Shown here piece after piece: positions 44,007 through 59,670 of a stretch of DNA of 64,000 bases (position 1 is its first letter; every line of letters starts with the position of its first letter). The translations under genes and the position numbers were made by a program. The notes beneath the pieces were generated by a model, which did no database searches, had not been told where the DNA came from, and saw only the letters and a list, made by a program, of their open reading frames with translations. Source of the DNA: a virus (Duplodnaviria > Caudoviricetes); the IMG/VR virus record IMGVR_UViG_3300027708_000013. One strand, 5' to 3'.

Positions 44007-46676
44007 TTATTCAAATGTAAACAAACTGTCAAATGTAGTTTTAATGTCAGTGGCTTCAGCAATGCCCCACTCCAGCACACCCAACAAATTTTCCACCTTT
44101 TGATCCACAATGGTCACTTCCATGAGGTCGTTGTCAAATGGCAAGTTTTTAAACCAGTCGGGAATGTGACTTTCATCTGTGGGATAGCCCACCGACGTAT
44201 AGCCCAAAGGATTGTCCTTTAATTTACACACAATGGTTTTCATACCATCCACAATACTCATGGAATAGTTGTCACTCATCATGCGTTTTAAGTTGTTCCA
44301 ATTCATTGCAGCTCTAACATGTCCTGGCATGTTGGCCTTGCCCAAGCGTTTTTCTTCGGCTGTGTATTTGGTTAGATTGTTTACACGTTTGGGTGTACCT
44401 TTTTCCCAGGCCGGACGTTCAGCAAATTCAATCTTGAATTCTCTAACTCTATCCACCACACGTTGTCTAACATCTCCGGTGCCGGTGAGTACTTCCAATA
44501 AAATTTCACTGAGAAACTCCTGCACAATCTTGGGAGTATCACTGCGTTTCAAATCCAAGCCCATGGCCTTGACCTTACCCGGCCGACCCATGACATCCTG
44601 TCGCTTGCCTTCTTTATCATAGATCAACACAGCATAGCGTTTCTTTTTAATGAACAATCCTTTACTTGCTACCAGTTCTCTGCCACCTAGAATAATAGCA
44701 CCCATGTCTCTGGGGCAGTGACAAGCACGTTCCATGAACGCTGGGAAACTTTCATTTACACTTTGGGCAATGGTGTCGTACAGTTGTACGCAGATTTCCC
44801 GCGACCATTCCATTCTACCCGCCGCAACTTCCTCTTTGACTGCGGGCCACGCTGAGAAGTATACCGAGTCGGTGTCGCCGTATATAATCGACGAGCCCAC
44901 ATGGTCGTATTCGCCTGTAATGGCTTCATTAACATGTGCATCCATGTGCCTTGCAATGATGCGGCCAGTGAGTGTCGTGCTCTGACCAATGCGGTGGTCG
45001 AAGAACCTGCAACCCGGGTTGAGGATCGCACCGTAGAGGCTGTTGAGGTTGATTTTTTTGACCAACTGTCGTTTGTCCCAGAACGCAACATCTTCCGGAG
45101 TTTCTGCGGCTTCCTTTTTGGCTTGTAAGTCTTTTCGTTCGGCATACCATCTCTCCAGTAATCCAGGAATAATTCCTTTGGTGTCGTATCTAAATATTGT
45201 ACCATTGGCACTGAGTGTCCATGGTTGTCTGCTGTCAAAGATCATTCGCCATACTTCAGCGGCCGAGTGTACAGTACTTTTGCCCGAGTCCTCCCAGTCA
45301 ATGGTGATTTCTGTGCCGGGTTCGGCATTCATCACAGCAGTGTATTCCACACTACCAAACATGTTTTCCCAAGCATCAGCAAAACTACTGCCTGAGGCTA
45401 TTTTATCCCCAATGTATCTATCTGTCATGATGGGACGCAGTTGAGCCACAACAGTTTCTGGACCCATGTTGAGTGCTCGAATGGCTGAGGGATACAAACT
45501 GTTGATGTCTATGGCACCAATGTATTCGTGTACACCGCGTTTGGGATAGGCCACATAAGCACCTGCGGCTTGACTGTTGACTTCTTCGTCACGTCCTCTA
45601 CGGTTGGGGGCAATCATGCCACGACTGTGTGCTTCGTTGATGATGGCCTGTTCAGTAACAGCCACAGCACCCATTGTGGTGGGCAACAACACTGTGTTGT
45701 CATGTGCCAGTTCATTGGCTAGATCCAAGTAACGTAATTTCTTATCCAGTTTGGCCAACAAGGCCACGTCCTGACGATTGTAGTCTATGAACTTTTCAAA
45801 CTCTCTGTTGTACAGTTGATCCAAGGTGCCTTCGTAGGCAGTTTTATTGCCCACTTCTTCGTATTCGCCAATGGCATCTAAACTGTAACTGTGACGTTCT
45901 TCATAGGTGTATTTTCTATACAACTGCATATAGTCCATATGCACACGACCTATCAAATCAAATGTCAATTGTTCGGCACCAAAGCGTTCAAATGTTCGCT
46001 GTTTGGGAAACTGTCCCCACAAGCACAGGCGTCGTGTGTCGTCTTTGCTCAACACACGATTGATACGCATGGTGGTGTAGGGAATATCATATCCCTCACT
46101 ATTCCACCCGCTCAAGATGTCGGCATCGTCAATGATGTCCAGGAATGTGTTCAACATGTCTGCTTCACGTTCAAACAAGAAACAGTTGTCAAATTTACGG
46201 CAAATTTCTTCTGCCGATTGCCATGAGTAACTCCGGGGTGGCACCACTAGAGTAACCATCCGGTCCATCCAGTCCATGTACACTGATATTGAAGTGATGG
46301 CGTTGAATGGATCATCCGGCTTGGAATAGCCACGCTCGGGATCAAAGTCCACTTCAATATCAAAAAAGGCTGTGTGTAATCTGGGTGAAGCCACGCCGAG
46401 ATAGTTTTCCTCTAGGCAACGAAATATGGGATTGATATCGCTTTCCCACAGTTGCTTGTTGGAGTTTATGCGTAGTTCTTTTTGGAATTCTTTATTGTTA
46501 CGTGTGGTAAAACGGCTCACAGGTGTACCGTAGATGGTTCGATGTTTGCCCTTGGGGTCATCATAATACAGGGTGTAGTTGGCTGGATATTCTCGATAAA
46601 CTCGCTCACCTGCAACTCGTTCTACCACATGAATACGATCTTTATTGCGATCAAACAATGCGTCAATATAGCTGAT
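44007..46676 (-). CDS. Family B DNA polymerase (T4 gp43-like)
   Basis: Exo FFDIEVDF, GWNSEGYD, YNRQD; pol DINSLYPS, KINLNSLYG, YGDTDS, KKRYA. Probable start is ATC 46676 after AAGGAG. Confidence 0.97.
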   Translation of the reverse strand: MSYIDALFDRNKDRIHVVERVAGERVYREYPANYTLYYDDPKGKHRTIYGTPVSRFTTRNNKEFQKELRINSNKQLWESDINPIFRCLEENYLGVASPRLHTAFFDIEVDFDPERGYSKPDDPFNAITSISVYMDWMDRMVTLVVPPRSYSWQSAEEICRKFDNCFLFEREADMLNTFLDIIDDADILSGWNSEGYDIPYTTMRINRVLSKDDTRRLCLWGQFPKQRTFERFGAEQLTFDLIGRVHMDYMQLYRKYTYEERHSYSLDAIGEYEEVGNKTAYEGTLDQLYNREFEKFIDYNRQDVALLAKLDKKLRYLDLANELAHDNTVLLPTTMGAVAVTEQAIINEAHSRGMIAPNRRGRDEEVNSQAAGAYVAYPKRGVHEYIGAIDINSLYPSAIRALNMGPETVVAQLRPIMTDRYIGDKIASGSSFADAWENMFGSVEYTAVMNAEPGTEITIDWEDSGKSTVHSAAEVWRMIFDSRQPWTLSANGTIFRYDTKGIIPGLLERWYAERKDLQAKKEAAETPEDVAFWDKRQLVKKINLNSLYGAILNPGCRFFDHRIGQSTTLTGRIIARHMDAHVNEAITGEYDHVGSSIIYGDTDSVYFSAWPAVKEEVAAGRMEWSREICVQLYDTIAQSVNESFPAFMERACHCPRDMGAIILGGRELVASKGLFIKKKRYAVLIYDKEGKRQDVMGRPGKVKAMGLDLKRSDTPKIVQEFLSEILLEVLTGTGDVRQRVVDRVREFKIEFAERPAWEKGTPKRVNNLTKYTAEEKRLGKANMPGHVRAAMNWNNLKRMMSDNYSMSIVDGMKTIVCKLKDNPLGYTSVGYPTDESHIPDWFKNLPFDNDLMEVTIVDQKVENLLGVLEWGIAEATDIKTTFDSLFTFE

Positions 46677-46683
46677 GATAATT

Positions 46684-46740
46684 CTCCTTGAGTGTGACTT
46701 TGAGCTCACACAGCTCTACATGTTCGTAAGTGAACGACTC
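46684..46740 (-). promoter_or_regulatory. Structured 5' leader of the polymerase gene, candidate translational operator
   Basis: Hairpins GTTC/GAAC and GAGCT/AGCTC, alternative GTGTGA/TCACAC and outer GAGT/ACTC, directly before the SD. Confidence 0.55.
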
Positions 46741-46744
46741 TATA

Positions 46745-47050
46745 TTATACTGTTTTACTTATCATGTGAACAAGACCTATAATATCAATAGTAACAAGGA
46801 GGCAGTAATTAGCCAACATACCAAAGCTACCACGAGTCCAGCTTGCCCAAGCGTACATGCAACATCCTGAAATCCAAAAAGGGTACATGAAGAGGAGAGG
46901 AGGATTAGGTACAGTAAGGGCCATAGTAATGCTACAACCCACACTGATAGCCCAAGCCAAAATTTCAATACAGAACCTAAGTGGCCACTGTTGATAGTCT
47001 CTTTTAGCCCACTGATAAAGTTCGACGATGACATTGGCTACATGACCCAT
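46745..47050 (-). CDS. Small membrane protein
   Basis: Three hydrophobic segments; TAATG coupling. Confidence 0.7.
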   Translation of the reverse strand: MGHVANVIVELYQWAKRDYQQWPLRFCIEILAWAISVGCSITMALTVPNPPLLFMYPFWISGCCMYAWASWTRGSFGMLANYCLLVTIDIIGLVHMISKTV

Positions 47051-47310
47051 TAAAGAGTGTGGCCTGCTGTTTCTAAAATCTCATTCAATTCCTCGTGATC
47101 GGCATTGGTGTCAGTGAGTTTTGATTTTTGAGCAATTTTGATGGCTTTTTTCAACAGTGCTGGTTTGAGTTCTAATTCTTCGGCAATGGCCTTGACTGTT
47201 TCGCTCAAGCCTTCATTCAGTGCTTCAATTTCGGTAAGCACAGCAATACCTTCGTTGAACACTTGTTGTAATTTTGCACGTTGTTCGGCACTAAACATTC
47301 TTGATGTCAT
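47050..47310 (-). CDS. dsbA: dsDNA-binding protein, T4 DsbA/GapR-like
   Basis: 86 aa helical pattern (LNEGLSETVKAIAEELEL...LKKAI); SD AGGAGA. Confidence 0.65.
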   Translation of the reverse strand: MTSRMFSAEQRAKLQQVFNEGIAVLTEIEALNEGLSETVKAIAEELELKPALLKKAIKIAQKSKLTDTNADHEELNEILETAGHTL

Positions 47311-47474: not shown

Positions 47475-48995
47475 CTAGTAGATACTGATGGGATCCACTA
47501 TGACCAACTGTCCGTTGGCACGTCTTCTAATATTTTCAATCTGACCCAAATCCAAATTATAACCTTTGGGTCCAACTAGACCCTCAATGATCGCTTCGGT
47601 GGCATATATTAGGCCATCCAATTCTTGTTCGCTGATGCCGGAGGGTCTTGGTTTATTCATCATGAACGCATTTACCCCCAGCTGACCGCGTGCCATGGCT
47701 GTCATTAAATCCTCAATGTACTCTAGAGTAGCTTCTTCACTGGCCACATACTCCAAATACTCTGTTTCGTACACAAAATAAGTTTCTTCGCCCAGCTGAA
47801 AATCTCCTGAATTGTATATTCGTGGATAATGTGGGTTGCGTTGATTGCGTTGAAAAAACTCCACATAGTCACGCACAGCTTGTTCTCTATCACCATCACC
47901 CACACCCAGCACCTTGACTATGGTGTTTCTTGGACTTTTGAAAACTATTTGATCCCGCCCTTCACCCACGTACTTGTAGCCTTTTGAAAAGAAATAATCC
48001 TGTATTCTTTCGCTCACTTCAAGTTCATCTGCATCGTTGACTTCTTTTACTAATTCTTTTTTCTGTTGTTCCCAGATATTTTTACTTGGTTTATGTTTGT
48101 TCCAAAACCCAGCACCAGCCGCAGTTTGTGAAGGATTACGGCGTATTTTATATCCTTGATTTTTCATATAGTCATACATGGTGGCAGCAATGCCTTGACC
48201 ACGACAGCGATCATCAACTTCTAAATCTTCTGGTGTAAGATATTCGCCATCAAATGAAAACAGCACATGTCCCAGTTCTTGACCGTCGCTTCTAGCAATA
48301 ACATATATGAGTGGTTCATCATCCGGGTCAGCTATATAACCTTCAATATCATCTTGTGTTTCAATTGAAATATCTATGCCGTTGTAGTGTACAGTTTTGG
48401 CCTCTGCAACAGATTCTCTCGCAAATTCTCTGGCTCTGCCTTCTGGATCCACATGCCAAGCATAGAATCTTGTGTCGGGATATTCCTGCTTCAATTCCAT
48501 AAAACTGTTCAAGTTGGGCACAGCATCATCATACATGATGGCCTTGGTGTAACTACCTTGATCTAATAAATCACGTATGATCTTCTTTTTCTTTTCTTCT
48601 GTGGTAGCACCCTGCATGTTGCCGGCACGGTACACATGCACACGACTCATGTCAACACCGTACTTGCGGAACGTGTCTAAAAATAATTCTTTATCATCAA
48701 AGTCAGCTCTGGCCGTCACCATCACAACTCGGTTGCCTGTGGCAATATCGTGCTTGAGTTGATTCATCATGGGAATAATTGGACGCGATTTTTCAAAGAA
48801 TTCTTGTGCGTTTCTAAAGTCCGCAAAGTCAAATTCCTCGCCAGGCTGGAGTCGGTACAGTGTAAAGTCATGACTGTTTAAACTTTTAACTACAGCACCA
48901 TTGCGAATCACATGCACTTGAGTTTGCGTGTGCACCAAGGTGTCGTCTATGTCAAAGACAACTAATTTACTTGGTTGTATTTCATCAGCTCTCAC
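47475..48995 (-). CDS. Modular protein: HAD phosphatase + GNAT + protein-kinase-like domain
   Basis: VFDIDDTL, VTAR, MYDDA; EVDD..RGQGIA; GEGRDQIVF, VKVL, PRIY, EYLE, D...EN...VIVDP. Confidence 0.8.
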   Translation of the reverse strand: MRADEIQPSKLVVFDIDDTLVHTQTQVHVIRNGAVVKSLNSHDFTLYRLQPGEEFDFADFRNAQEFFEKSRPIIPMMNQLKHDIATGNRVVMVTARADFDDKELFLDTFRKYGVDMSRVHVYRAGNMQGATTEEKKKKIIRDLLDQGSYTKAIMYDDAVPNLNSFMELKQEYPDTRFYAWHVDPEGRAREFARESVAEAKTVHYNGIDISIETQDDIEGYIADPDDEPLIYVIARSDGQELGHVLFSFDGEYLTPEDLEVDDRCRGQGIAATMYDYMKNQGYKIRRNPSQTAAGAGFWNKHKPSKNIWEQQKKELVKEVNDADELEVSERIQDYFFSKGYKYVGEGRDQIVFKSPRNTIVKVLGVGDGDREQAVRDYVEFFQRNQRNPHYPRIYNSGDFQLGEETYFVYETEYLEYVASEEATLEYIEDLMTAMARGQLGVNAFMMNKPRPSGISEQELDGLIYATEAIIEGLVGPKGYNLDLGQIENIRRRANGQLVIVDPISIY

Positions 48996-56941: not shown

Positions 56942-59670
56942 CAGCGTTTGATCATACTTTCTTTTTTCACTGACTTCTTACGAAAAGGACTGCTGGGGTT
57001 CTTGTAAGTACCACCAAACAGTGTACCGGTTCCGGGTCCTGAGCCTGGAGTGATTGCTGTGCTGATTGAACTGGAAAAAGTTTCGGCTATACGATCTAGA
57101 TCTTGATCCAGGGTGGGTAATTCTTTTGTTTTCTTAAGAGCTTGTCCGGTTAAGTTGTGTACTTTGCCTTGAGGATTTTTCTTAGGATTGGTTGGTTTCC
57201 ATGGGCCTTCGTCTCGCCAACTGGTGACATTTCCATCTTTATCTTTTGTTTCAGTTCTGTCTTCCGACACACCCGGCTTCTTGACACCCAGGTTGGCTGC
57301 TGGATTGCCGCCACCAAACATGCTGTCAAAAGCATCTTTAGATTGTTGTTTGGTGTCTGCTGTTCGTTGTTTGGCTACTGCTTTTTTACCAGTGATGCCT
57401 TTAAACATCTTGTCAAACTTTGGGTCGCCGGTGGCTTCCGCTACACCCGACTCTGGTAAATTAGGTTTGCGGTGTTGGCCAAGCTGACCTTTAATAGCGG
57501 CTTTAAGATCGCCTGAACGACGGGCTCTCTGCTGATCAGCAAATTCTTTTGTCTCTGGACTTGCACCGGGAGTATTCATTCCAGGAATATTCCCTAGATC
57601 GGTTTGACCTGGTCTAGGAAATTTATGTGCAGTGTTCATACCTGTGCGAGCCCTCAGTCTGTCTGGACTTGTTCCTAATGCTTCCGCCACACCTTCACCA
57701 AATCTATTTGTTGGGGATACATTGCGTGGATCAGAGAAGTCAGCACTAGGCTCAGGCATACTATATTCATGAACTTCGTGAACCCACTCCTCTGGAATAT
57801 CTAACTTACGAGCAATAGTTGCCGCTGGTACACCCTTTACCAGCAAGTCAATGATCTGTTGATCAATTTTACTTTGTGGGCCATTGCCTTCCGCCACACC
57901 CGACTTGCCAGCAGGAACAACTTCAATTTTACTAAATTTACTGTTTTTCATTCGTGCTTTGAATTTTTCTTCAGCGTCTTGCGGATTCAATGCTTTGATT
58001 GTGGCGCTGGAATAGCTTGTTCCAGACTGACCAAAATAGCCCTTGACATCATACACTTGTCCGGGCTGGGCATTGAAATCTGCCTGCATTTTTTTCAAAT
58101 TCATTACACTCTGCTTGCTGATTCCGCCGGGATTGCCGCGACGAGGTTTTTTAAGAGCGGCCTGATACGGAGTATGTATATCTTTTTGTGTATCAAAACC
58201 TTGTTTATCCAGGTAATGCAATACATCGTCGCTGACCTGGGTGTCGAGATCAAATAGTGCGGCAATACCAGCAGTCATTCCTTTGTGTAAAAAAGTTTCT
58301 CCTACTTCTTTGATCATTTCTCCGTCTTCTGCAGAAGCTTCATCATCCCACAATGTGCTGTACTGTTTGCTGAACTCAACAATAGCTGTACCATACTGTA
58401 GCGGGCCATTGTTACCTTCTCCGCCGGGTGCAAATTCGTTTAGTTTACCATTGGCTGACTTTGCATCTTTTTCTAATACACTTGCTGCATGTTGTAAAAA
58501 ATCAATTAAATCATATGCTGTTACAATCTCATAAGGTGTCATGGCACGGCCAAGATCAATGCTCCAGTCGTCCAACTCGTAACGACCTGAGGTTACAATT
58601 TTTGCATAACGCAAGATCCATTGACGTGCTTTTGCAAGATTTGGACTGGCCAAGTCGCGAGTACGATTTAGTACATCATACAACGTATCAATGTGTTGAC
58701 CTGGATCTGCTACTTCTTGATCAATTGCTGAAATTATATCTTCAAGGCCCAGAGACTGTGTATCCGCTTGTTTTTTACTAGTGATGTTGTTGAGCCAGGT
58801 GTCAAATTTTATATCGCCGGTTGCTTCCGCCACACCTTGCTTGCTACTCATTCTTTTCAACAAACTCACAGCATAAACCAAATGCTGGCCAAGTTCTTTT
58901 CGTTGATCTGTTCCTGGTTTAGCATTGCTATTTTTCTGTATACTCTTTGCTAAATTTTCGGCGGCAAGTGCTTGACGGGCCAAATCACCATTGGACCGAT
59001 TGCCAACGATTTGATTTAAAAATCCACGCTTGCGGTTGGCTTGATTTGCACCATCAATTAGTGCCTTAACAATTTTATCTATCTGTTCAGCTGTTGCTCT
59101 ATCACCCACTGTGACAAACTCATCGTGGCGTGTTTCCCAATCCAAGCCTTCCTCCACACCTTGTTCTTCATTCACAGCCCGGTGTTTCACATCCTTCAAG
59201 TGTGCATCAACACCCGCGGTGTTTTTTAATTTCCATTTGGCAGCGGCCTTTCGAGCAGCTTCATAGGAAGTTTTGGCTGTTACTTCGCACTGACCTTTTT
59301 TTGCGTGTACACAAACATAAGCACGTTCTGCATCACTCTCGCCCAACAATTCAGCAAACTTTTCTTCAGCTTCGGCAATGTTGAACACTGTCATGCCACT
59401 GGCATGGGGTCTTTCGCCGCTCATGACATCGTACTCCAACCATTCGACCACAGTTTTTAAATAGTCATTGGCTAGACTGATCTTTTCAGCGGCCCAAGCA
59501 TCCAGTTCGTGCCCGTCGGGTAATTTGCCCAGTAATTGATGTAGTTTGATTGCGTTGGCAGCCGAGTGATAGCACTCTTCTCTCAGCATGTGGTGTTGTT
59601 GGCTCTTATGCATTTGATGTGCGTCATCGCCAATAAATTCGTGTTCTGTGATAAAATCTTGTGGTTTCAT
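56941..59670 (-). CDS. 909-aa polyprotein-like protein; modules separated by GV(A/E/S)E
   Basis: MKPQDFITE start, six GVxE linkers, duplicated ATGDxKFD modules. Confidence 0.85.
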   Translation of the reverse strand: MKPQDFITEHEFIGDDAHQMHKSQQHHMLREECYHSAANAIKLHQLLGKLPDGHELDAWAAEKISLANDYLKTVVEWLEYDVMSGERPHASGMTVFNIAEAEEKFAELLGESDAERAYVCVHAKKGQCEVTAKTSYEAARKAAAKWKLKNTAGVDAHLKDVKHRAVNEEQGVEEGLDWETRHDEFVTVGDRATAEQIDKIVKALIDGANQANRKRGFLNQIVGNRSNGDLARQALAAENLAKSIQKNSNAKPGTDQRKELGQHLVYAVSLLKRMSSKQGVAEATGDIKFDTWLNNITSKKQADTQSLGLEDIISAIDQEVADPGQHIDTLYDVLNRTRDLASPNLAKARQWILRYAKIVTSGRYELDDWSIDLGRAMTPYEIVTAYDLIDFLQHAASVLEKDAKSANGKLNEFAPGGEGNNGPLQYGTAIVEFSKQYSTLWDDEASAEDGEMIKEVGETFLHKGMTAGIAALFDLDTQVSDDVLHYLDKQGFDTQKDIHTPYQAALKKPRRGNPGGISKQSVMNLKKMQADFNAQPGQVYDVKGYFGQSGTSYSSATIKALNPQDAEEKFKARMKNSKFSKIEVVPAGKSGVAEGNGPQSKIDQQIIDLLVKGVPAATIARKLDIPEEWVHEVHEYSMPEPSADFSDPRNVSPTNRFGEGVAEALGTSPDRLRARTGMNTAHKFPRPGQTDLGNIPGMNTPGASPETKEFADQQRARRSGDLKAAIKGQLGQHRKPNLPESGVAEATGDPKFDKMFKGITGKKAVAKQRTADTKQQSKDAFDSMFGGGNPAANLGVKKPGVSEDRTETKDKDGNVTSWRDEGPWKPTNPKKNPQGKVHNLTGQALKKTKELPTLDQDLDRIAETFSSSISTAITPGSGPGTGTLFGGTYKNPSSPFRKKSVKKESMIKR

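Follow-up and report, generated by a model that had tools for sequence, protein, structure and literature searches.

Here, we report that the DNA polymerase gene of an uncultured giant lake phage carries ATC at its conserved start position, behind a structured leader RNA. The window analyzed (the whole stretch of 64,000 nucleotides from IMG/VR record IMGVR_UViG_3300027708_000013) has a coding share of 94%; its 77 genes are all intact, and the polymerase gene lies on its minus strand. Comparison with related genes strongly supports AUC 46676 as the start of this gene, with AUC 46679 as a possible second one. Taking all observations together, it is probable that this AUC start is combined with a gp43-type polymerase leader pseudoknot, which would act as a gene-specific translational operator. 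A preliminary description of this region had proposed a non-AUG start behind a switchable RNA structure, with layered control of the polymerase. The features around the start codon are as follows:

44007–46676, minus strand: gene for a family-B (T4/RB69 gp43-type) DNA polymerase, 889 codons plus stop if read from ATC 46676
46674–46676, minus strand: ATC at the conserved start position, identified by alignment with the starts of relatives, a Shine-Dalgarno (SD) spacing of 7 nucleotides (nt) and the boundary of coding constraint
46677–46682, minus strand: in-frame ATT (46682–46680) and ATC (46679–46677) inside the spacer between SD and start, by direct reading
46684–46689, minus strand: SD sequence AAGGAG, 7 nt ahead of ATC 46676
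46707–46709, minus strand: GTG chosen by the gene caller, inside the 5' arm of stem S2 (see below) and lacking an SD

Start position of the polymerase gene

The minus strand reads AAGGAG (46689–46684), AATTATC (46683–46677), ATC (46676–46674), AGC, TAT, ATT and GAC, which confirms the sequence and the SD spacing given in the preliminary description. The open reading frame (ORF) called by program has 900 codons and begins at GTG 46709–46707, in the same frame as ATC 46676. Its product contains the Pfam domains DNA_pol_B and DNA_pol_B_exo1, and among solved structures it is closest to RB69 gp43 (E = 7e-57), with a collinear alignment (query residues 43–842 versus chain residues 48–859) that places the two N-termini within five residues of each other. 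On these matches the polymerase is gp43-type, and the analogy with T4 gp43 that had been drawn earlier is apt. Among the cultured relatives are jumbo phages such as Phosso, Atu_ph07, PA5oct and 121Q, whose polymerases are 36–48% identical to that of the window and whose annotated ATG starts align with the ATC; a blastn search against cultured phages gave no match.

To locate the start, we compared the gene with 160 uncultured relatives, among the matches listed, that are 66–84% identical over the N-terminal 189 residues. The polymerases of relatives are 886–889 residues long and have the N-terminus M-S-Y-I/V-D. Over 159 of these relatives, the codon in the alignment column of ATC 46676 was ATG in 141, TTG in 15, GTG in two and ATT in one (ATG, TTG or GTG in 158/159), always followed by S-Y-I/V-D-A. 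A GGAG or AGGA motif lies 4–8 nt before the start in relatives, and the SD of the other relatives with an AUH start (AUA, AUC or AUU) lies 6–7 nt before it. Because ATC 46676 is aligned with the start codons of relatives and is followed by the same conserved residues, it occupies the orthologous start position. The preliminary description had held that ATG in relatives would speak against an AUC start; relatives do mostly have ATG, but this only fixes the position of the start and does not refute it.

The polymerase gene is the only one of the 77 genes in the window that requires an AUH start, and general use of AUH starts throughout the genome, which we also considered, was rejected for the window on this count. 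With regard to the in-frame codons in the spacer, ATC 46679–46677, which lies 4 nt past GGAG, is a possible additional start.

AUH start codons in related polymerases

The isoleucine at the start position is not confined to a single contig. In the protein collection, the exact 900-residue product of the window (P0123) was found on five contigs, and a strain variant (P0122/P0124), which is about 97% identical, with 17 substitutions among residues 1–616, was found on four contigs from two sources and likewise reads R-I-I-I-S-Y. The same residues are present in P0091, P0136 and P0137, which form a separate 90% cluster 81% identical to the window product and come from nine contigs. In total, the allele was observed at the protein level on 18 contigs. 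The closest canonical relative, P0001, is 96% identical and starts with M-S-Y-V-D. These comparisons show that the AUC is a fixed, inherited allele of a conserved initiation codon in the phage lineage of the window.

In DNA, scanning IMG/VR with exact patterns revealed 25 further polymerase genes with an isoleucine codon at the start position (13 ATA, 10 ATC and two ATT). All of them have a strong SD 6–7 nt upstream and an ORF of 881–893 codons where the contig allows, and in 24 of the 25 an in-frame stop is present 5–32 codons upstream with no canonical start between; L131, which has an ATT start, is likewise without an in-frame upstream canonical start. In three AUH clades, the ratios of synonymous to nonsynonymous codon differences over codons 2–17 were 236:14, 39:10 and 6:0, and the corresponding ratios over the 15 in-frame triplets upstream were 6:250, 1:58 and 1:12. 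As the synonymous pattern starts right after the AUH codon and is reversed upstream of it, coding constraint begins at this codon. Thus, the non-AUG start proposed earlier is supported by the conserved position of the ATC, by the recurrence of the same allele across contigs and lineages, and by this boundary.

On a tree of 185 polymerases, the start state changed between AUH and canonical at least nine times, and several AUH clades have persisted across 5–15% protein divergence while switching among ATA, ATC and ATT. The AUH share of the polymerase family is about 1–4%, an approximate figure, as the number of canonical genes used as denominator is an at-least count. AUA, AUC or AUU at the start codon is recurrent in many lineages of the family. 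In a clade of 13 contigs (L330–L343 and L351), ATA is the polymerase start; it stands behind GGAGAATTATT, and the leader is short, unstructured and immediately preceded by a TATAAT box. The sister of this clade, L332/L339, uses ATC within the same cassette. This cassette, GGAG-AATT-ATY-ATH, recurs in L330–L343, in L352 and, at the protein level, in P0091.

One might object that the ATC arose as an error of sequencing or assembly, or that it marks a defective minority version of a gene which normally starts at ATG. The ATC is indeed one base from ATG, and near-identical DNA of the window lineage was not found by exact-pattern scans of IMG/VR and of JGI metagenome contigs; the matches listed from two protein-seeded scans went up to 83–84% identity. 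However, the same product occurs on five contigs, two further diverged lineages have isoleucine at the same place, the 25 cases seen at the DNA level fall in clades that have kept AUH through 5–15% protein divergence, and the window with its high coding content has no broken genes. We therefore regard an error or a defective allele as extremely improbable.

Another explanation is that translation begins at GTG 46709, which would give an 11-residue N-terminal extension and turn the ATC into an ordinary internal isoleucine codon. This GTG is the only canonical in-frame start ahead of the conserved N-terminus, and in the other R-I-I-I-S-Y lineage (P0091) an upstream start is likewise open in frame; the latter, however, reflects ascertainment bias, since P0091 was found through its extended product. 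As had been noted before, the GTG has no SD and lies inside a hairpin, where it is part of the 5' arm of the conserved stem GTGTGA/TCACAC (S2). Moreover, the extension would be leader RNA read as protein and is not conserved, no in-frame upstream start is present in 77 of 84 leader-bearing relatives or in 24 of the 25 AUH relatives, and the coding boundary lies at the AUH codon and not at the GTG. Translation from the GTG thus seems quite unlikely, and we consider this start a gene-calling artefact and at most a minor alternative to AUC 46676.

Several other members of the family deserve mention. The 729-residue products of P0122/P0124 diverge from the window protein just past the YGDTDS motif in an intein- or insertion-like manner, and another family member, P0205, contains the intein-splicing Pfam domain PF14890. 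P0041, P0116, P0117 and P0120/P0140 have been called 7–21 residues short, from an internal GTG or TTG, and may hide further non-canonical starts. In seven leaderless relatives (L008, L052, L071, L075, L289, L292 and L296), the polymerase gene has a TTG start that overlaps the stop codon of the small hydrophobic gene upstream (..ATTGA..), an arrangement suggestive of translational coupling and not of a separate ribosome binding site.

Structure and distribution of the leader RNA

Between the upstream gene and the start codon, the minus strand contains, in this order, TATAAT (46749–46744), GAGTCG, a 5' hairpin (P1), CAUGUAG, AGC, a single U, the S2 hairpin, UC and AAGGAG. The parts of the leader and the features ahead of it are:

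46722–46735, minus strand: hairpin P1, GUUC (46735–46732) paired with GAAC (46725–46722) around the loop ACUUAC, with GAGUC ahead, identified by covariation
46716–46722, minus strand: linker CAUGUAG from P1 to the pseudoknot, seen as near-invariant alignment columns
46703–46715, minus strand: stem S1, AGC (46715–46713) paired with GCU (46705–46703), the first three bases of the S2 loop, identified by covariation
46692–46711, minus strand: stem S2, GTGTGA (46711–46706) paired with TCACAC (46697–46692), 6 bp with the 8-nt loop GCTCAAAG (46705–46698), identified by covariation
46744–46749, minus strand: -10-like TATAAT, a putative promoter that overlaps the stop of the upstream gene
46745–47050, minus strand: upstream gene of 101 codons with a hydrophobic C-terminus, kept ahead of the polymerase gene in relatives

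Covariation among relatives shows that the leader consists of the 5' hairpin P1 and what the alignment presents as a small H-type pseudoknot, with an S1 of 3–4 bp and an S2 of 6 bp. P1 is paired in 87.5% of cases among 72 sequences, and three of its four pairs have compensatory changes, well above slid controls. For S2, 99.5% of cells are paired with double changes at four of the six pairs, and RNAalifold recovers this stem de novo. The S1 triplet is complementary at a fixed offset after the CAUG linker in all 75 unique leaders (AGY/GCU, GGY/GCC or AGU/ACU); its A-U/G-C state has changed at least seven times on the polymerase tree, and no mismatched state was found among 93 loci. An optional fourth S1 pair, G46716-C46702, is available. 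S2 varies from 3 to 9 bp across lineages, and its loop is always 8 nt with the consensus GCYNNAAN. In the window, 2 nt separate the end of the leader structure from the SD; among short-stem relatives, the GG of the SD forms part of the 3' arm of S2. Thus, the structured leader adjoining the SD that had been described from this sequence is made of conserved stems.

The preliminary description had regarded the stems GAGCT (46716–46712)/AGCTC (46706–46702) and GTGTGA/TCACAC as mutually exclusive, so that S1 and S2 would form a switch which alternately exposes and hides the start region. Both stems are present and covary, and drawn as nested structures they do cross and share A46706; covariation supports each of them and is silent on whether they form simultaneously. 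On the other hand, the overlap amounts to this one base only, and the loop lengths (L1 of 1–4 nt, which is U46712 in the window, and an A-rich L3 of 5 nt) fit the geometry of a classical H-type pseudoknot formed by S1 and S2 together. In addition, SD and start codon both lie outside the two stems of this phage, and switching alone would not gate initiation. The two stems of the earlier proposal therefore stand, their exclusiveness is not supported, and a switch of this kind is in our opinion unlikely.

Of the 160 relatives, about 90 carry the leader. A covariance model built for it finds one copy in the window at 66.9 bits, and the next match, of 12.9 bits, is in coding sequence; weak matches at 48582–48648 and 58087–58163 lie inside coding regions and were taken as chance. 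Each related locus has one copy, as does a complete genome of 374 kb. No Rfam 15 family matched either strand of 46400–47100 at E ≤ 10, and neither this leader nor an AUH start of a phage polymerase gene was found to be described in the literature. It is well supported by these comparisons that the leader represents a previously undescribed small pseudoknot RNA with about 90 examples.

Small H-type pseudoknots with an A-rich third loop next to the SD are typical of the preQ1 and SAM-II riboswitch classes. The leader might accordingly be a riboswitch that senses a ligand such as a nucleotide or a 7-deazaguanine precursor, or else an mRNA-stabilizing or ribosome-standby element. It has in common with preQ1-I type riboswitches, which are H-type pseudoknots of 30–35 nt, the A-rich third loop and a position abutting or overlapping the SD, and P1 is probably at the 5' end of the mRNA. 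However, a ligand-sensing function fits poorly with the lack of any Rfam match even at E = 10, with an S2 of 3–9 bp and few conserved unpaired bases, which is unusual for a ligand pocket, and with the occurrence of the element as a single copy per genome, only ahead of the polymerase gene or operon. Such a role is a minor but serious possibility, and we prefer an operator for the polymerase itself.

The 5' end of the leader depends on the assignment of the promoter. TATAAT 46744–46749 is probably a promoter, which would place P1 at the 5' end of the mRNA; a comparable box is found 4–8 nt ahead of GAGTCG in relatives, and a scan of the site with the -10 consensus gave a score not above chance. 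Many short-stem relatives have TATAAATA instead of TATAAT at the end of the upstream gene, which resembles the T4 late promoter. No tRNA gene was detected within the window.

Some variation around the linker was also observed. A conserved start-stop ORF (AUG-UAG) in the linker was considered and ruled out by the CAAG, CAGG and CAUGAAUCA variants. In short-stem leaders such as those of L155 and L067, a tiny ORF (for example AUG AAU CAU GGC UAA) without an SD begins at the conserved CAUG that follows P1; in some relatives this ORF extends as far as a stop that overlaps the start of the polymerase gene. In L013, L015, L021, L023, L031, L056 and L092, an ORF of about 55 codons encoding a Cys-rich product (M-S-N-R-..-C-E-Q-C-E-D-C..) separates the leader from the polymerase gene as an insertion, so that the leader motif is located about 160–180 nt before the polymerase start. 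The stop of this ORF overlaps the polymerase ATG (ATGA), and the leader therefore heads a coupled two-gene unit in this sub-clade.

AUH starts and the pseudoknot do not always occur together. Both are present in the window, L345, L348, L350 and L353–L356, and AUH starts without the pseudoknot are found in the ATA clade, L332, L339, L352 and the ATT clade L131/L346/L357. The two are thus independent layers, and each of them plausibly lowers or tunes polymerase output. The layered control suggested in the preliminary description is thus not obligatory, as AUH starts are also used by relatives that have no structured leader. A natural knock-out is offered by L057 and L062, which have kept P1 and the linker but lost the whole pseudoknot, with a polymerase almost identical to that of the leader-bearing L060.

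Proposed translational control of the polymerase

Based on the layout of the leader and on the homology of the enzyme to T4/RB69 gp43, we propose the following mechanism. The perfect AAGGAG would place the 30S subunit 7 nt upstream of the AUC, and the initiator tRNA would pair with AUC 46676, perhaps also with AUC 46679, at a few percent of the efficiency of AUG. The product would have an N-terminal methionine and a low output, which may suffice for an enzyme needed only in small amounts. The pseudoknot would serve as a gene-specific translational operator: when folded or protein-bound, most simply by the polymerase itself, it would hinder access of the ribosome to the SD, and such autogenous feedback would also buffer differences in start-codon strength. 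It is probable on these grounds that the leader throttles translation of the polymerase. In Escherichia coli, initiation at AUC was reported to reach 1–2% of that at AUG, with N-terminal methionine demonstrated by mass spectrometry, and AUU was the only natural non-canonical start confirmed (10.1101/063800).

The closest known parallel to the leader is the operator of T4 gene 43. In our reading of the T4 leader, TATAAT is followed after 6 nt by a hairpin of 5 bp that has AAUAACUC as its 8-nt loop, then after 7 nt by AAGGA and after another 6 nt by AUG; this leader is the operator that gp43 binds for autogenous repression (PMC3014915). The window has the same type of enzyme and the same order of -10 box, hairpin with an AA-containing 8-nt loop, A-rich spacer, SD and start, and its element is likewise a single, gene-specific copy in the leader adjoining the ribosome binding site. 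However, there is no sequence similarity between the two, and P1 and the pseudoknot pairing are additional to what T4 has; no evidence of a pseudoknot was reported for the gene 43 operator, a simple hairpin of 16–18 nt, whose loop contains -UAAC- in T4 and -UAAA- in RB49 and whose 3' AC/AA bases matter for binding (PMC3014915). In the window the loop is GCUCAAAG and in the family GCYNNAAN, as compared with -UAAC- of T4; an AA is conserved in the family, with AUAA or UAAA in another register in some of its members. The covariance model (R1) gave no match on the T4 gene 43 leader or on Phosso, Atu_ph07, PA5oct and 121Q, four phages without the leader. Thus, it is plausible that the leader works like a gp43-type operator without being a member of that family.

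A second parallel is the pseudoknot in the gene 32 leader of T4 and T2, which is also a small H-type pseudoknot of a replication gene with a single-nucleotide loop crossing a stem of 6–7 bp. That pseudoknot, however, is found a long way upstream of the start, where it nucleates the cooperative binding of gp32 on an unstructured A/U-rich tract, and it belongs to a different gene with no sequence relation to the leader described here.

As for the start codon, the AUU starts of E. coli infC (encoding IF3) and pcnB resemble the present case in that a conserved near-cognate AUH codon is used with a normal SD, with low expression that depends on initiation factors. The polymerase genes show the features of the infC type: AUH is at the orthologous start, the SD is at a functional spacing, the codon is kept and constraint begins there. 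No usable canonical start is nearby in 24 of the 25 AUH relatives and L131, and the window itself has the one unsupported GTG. What differs is that AUC, AUA and AUU are used here on a phage polymerase gene, with at least nine gains in one family in which most relatives keep AUG.

One may further ask whether the non-AUG start, instead of being a tolerated defect, is a regulatory device under selection that ties polymerase synthesis to the state of the initiation machinery. The GGAG-AAUU-AUY-AUH cassette, with up to three tandem near-cognate codons, is shared by polymerase lineages that are 77–85% identical and have unrelated leaders, and whole clades switch among AUA, AUC and AUU without return to AUG. 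We put this forward only tentatively, as a view more doubtful than acceptable at present. If it is true, discrimination might be of the IF3 type as in infC, or might involve a phage-encoded factor or a tRNA from the 27-tRNA set of the phage, and in pseudoknot-bearing phages the start control would act in series with a polymerase-binding pseudoknot operator.

Several observations weigh against the combination of an AUC start with a polymerase-binding pseudoknot operator. With regard to the start, the in-frame GTG is open upstream in the window, unlike in most AUH relatives, and a minor extended isoform is possible; other strains of the window lineage show isoleucine at the start position at the protein and not at the DNA level; and the contig counts may contain repeated deposits of one assembly. 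With regard to the leader, the minimum free energy of the single sequence (-13.6 kcal/mol, z = +0.94 versus shuffles) is no better than that of shuffled sequences, so that the stems exceed chance by virtue of covariation and the structural evidence is comparative only, and covariation cannot separate a pseudoknot from two alternately formed stems. Its loop differs from the -UAAC- loop of T4, which the leader model does not match. Finally, the two features are separable, considering the AUH starts without the leader in the ATA clade and the loss of the pseudoknot in the near-identical L057/L062. Even so, we consider the combination of AUC start and operator the probable explanation of this region.

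To our knowledge, verified natural starts that are not AUG, GUG or UUG are very few in bacteria and phages, and the only confirmed non-canonical starts that we know of in E. coli are the AUU codons of infC and pcnB. The polymerase family adds dozens of matched natural cases, in which one essential gene starts with AUG, UUG, GUG, AUA, AUC or AUU behind similar ribosome binding sites. With these cases, the strength of near-cognate codons in natural contexts, the selection of weak starts for low-copy replication enzymes and the buffering of start-codon strength by feedback control become directly testable. They also imply that gene callers misplace polymerase starts, with false extensions of 11–13 residues or truncations of 7–20 residues. 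If the leader binds the polymerase, autoregulation of the gp43 type would reach far outside the T4 group, with a second, structurally distinct type of operator.

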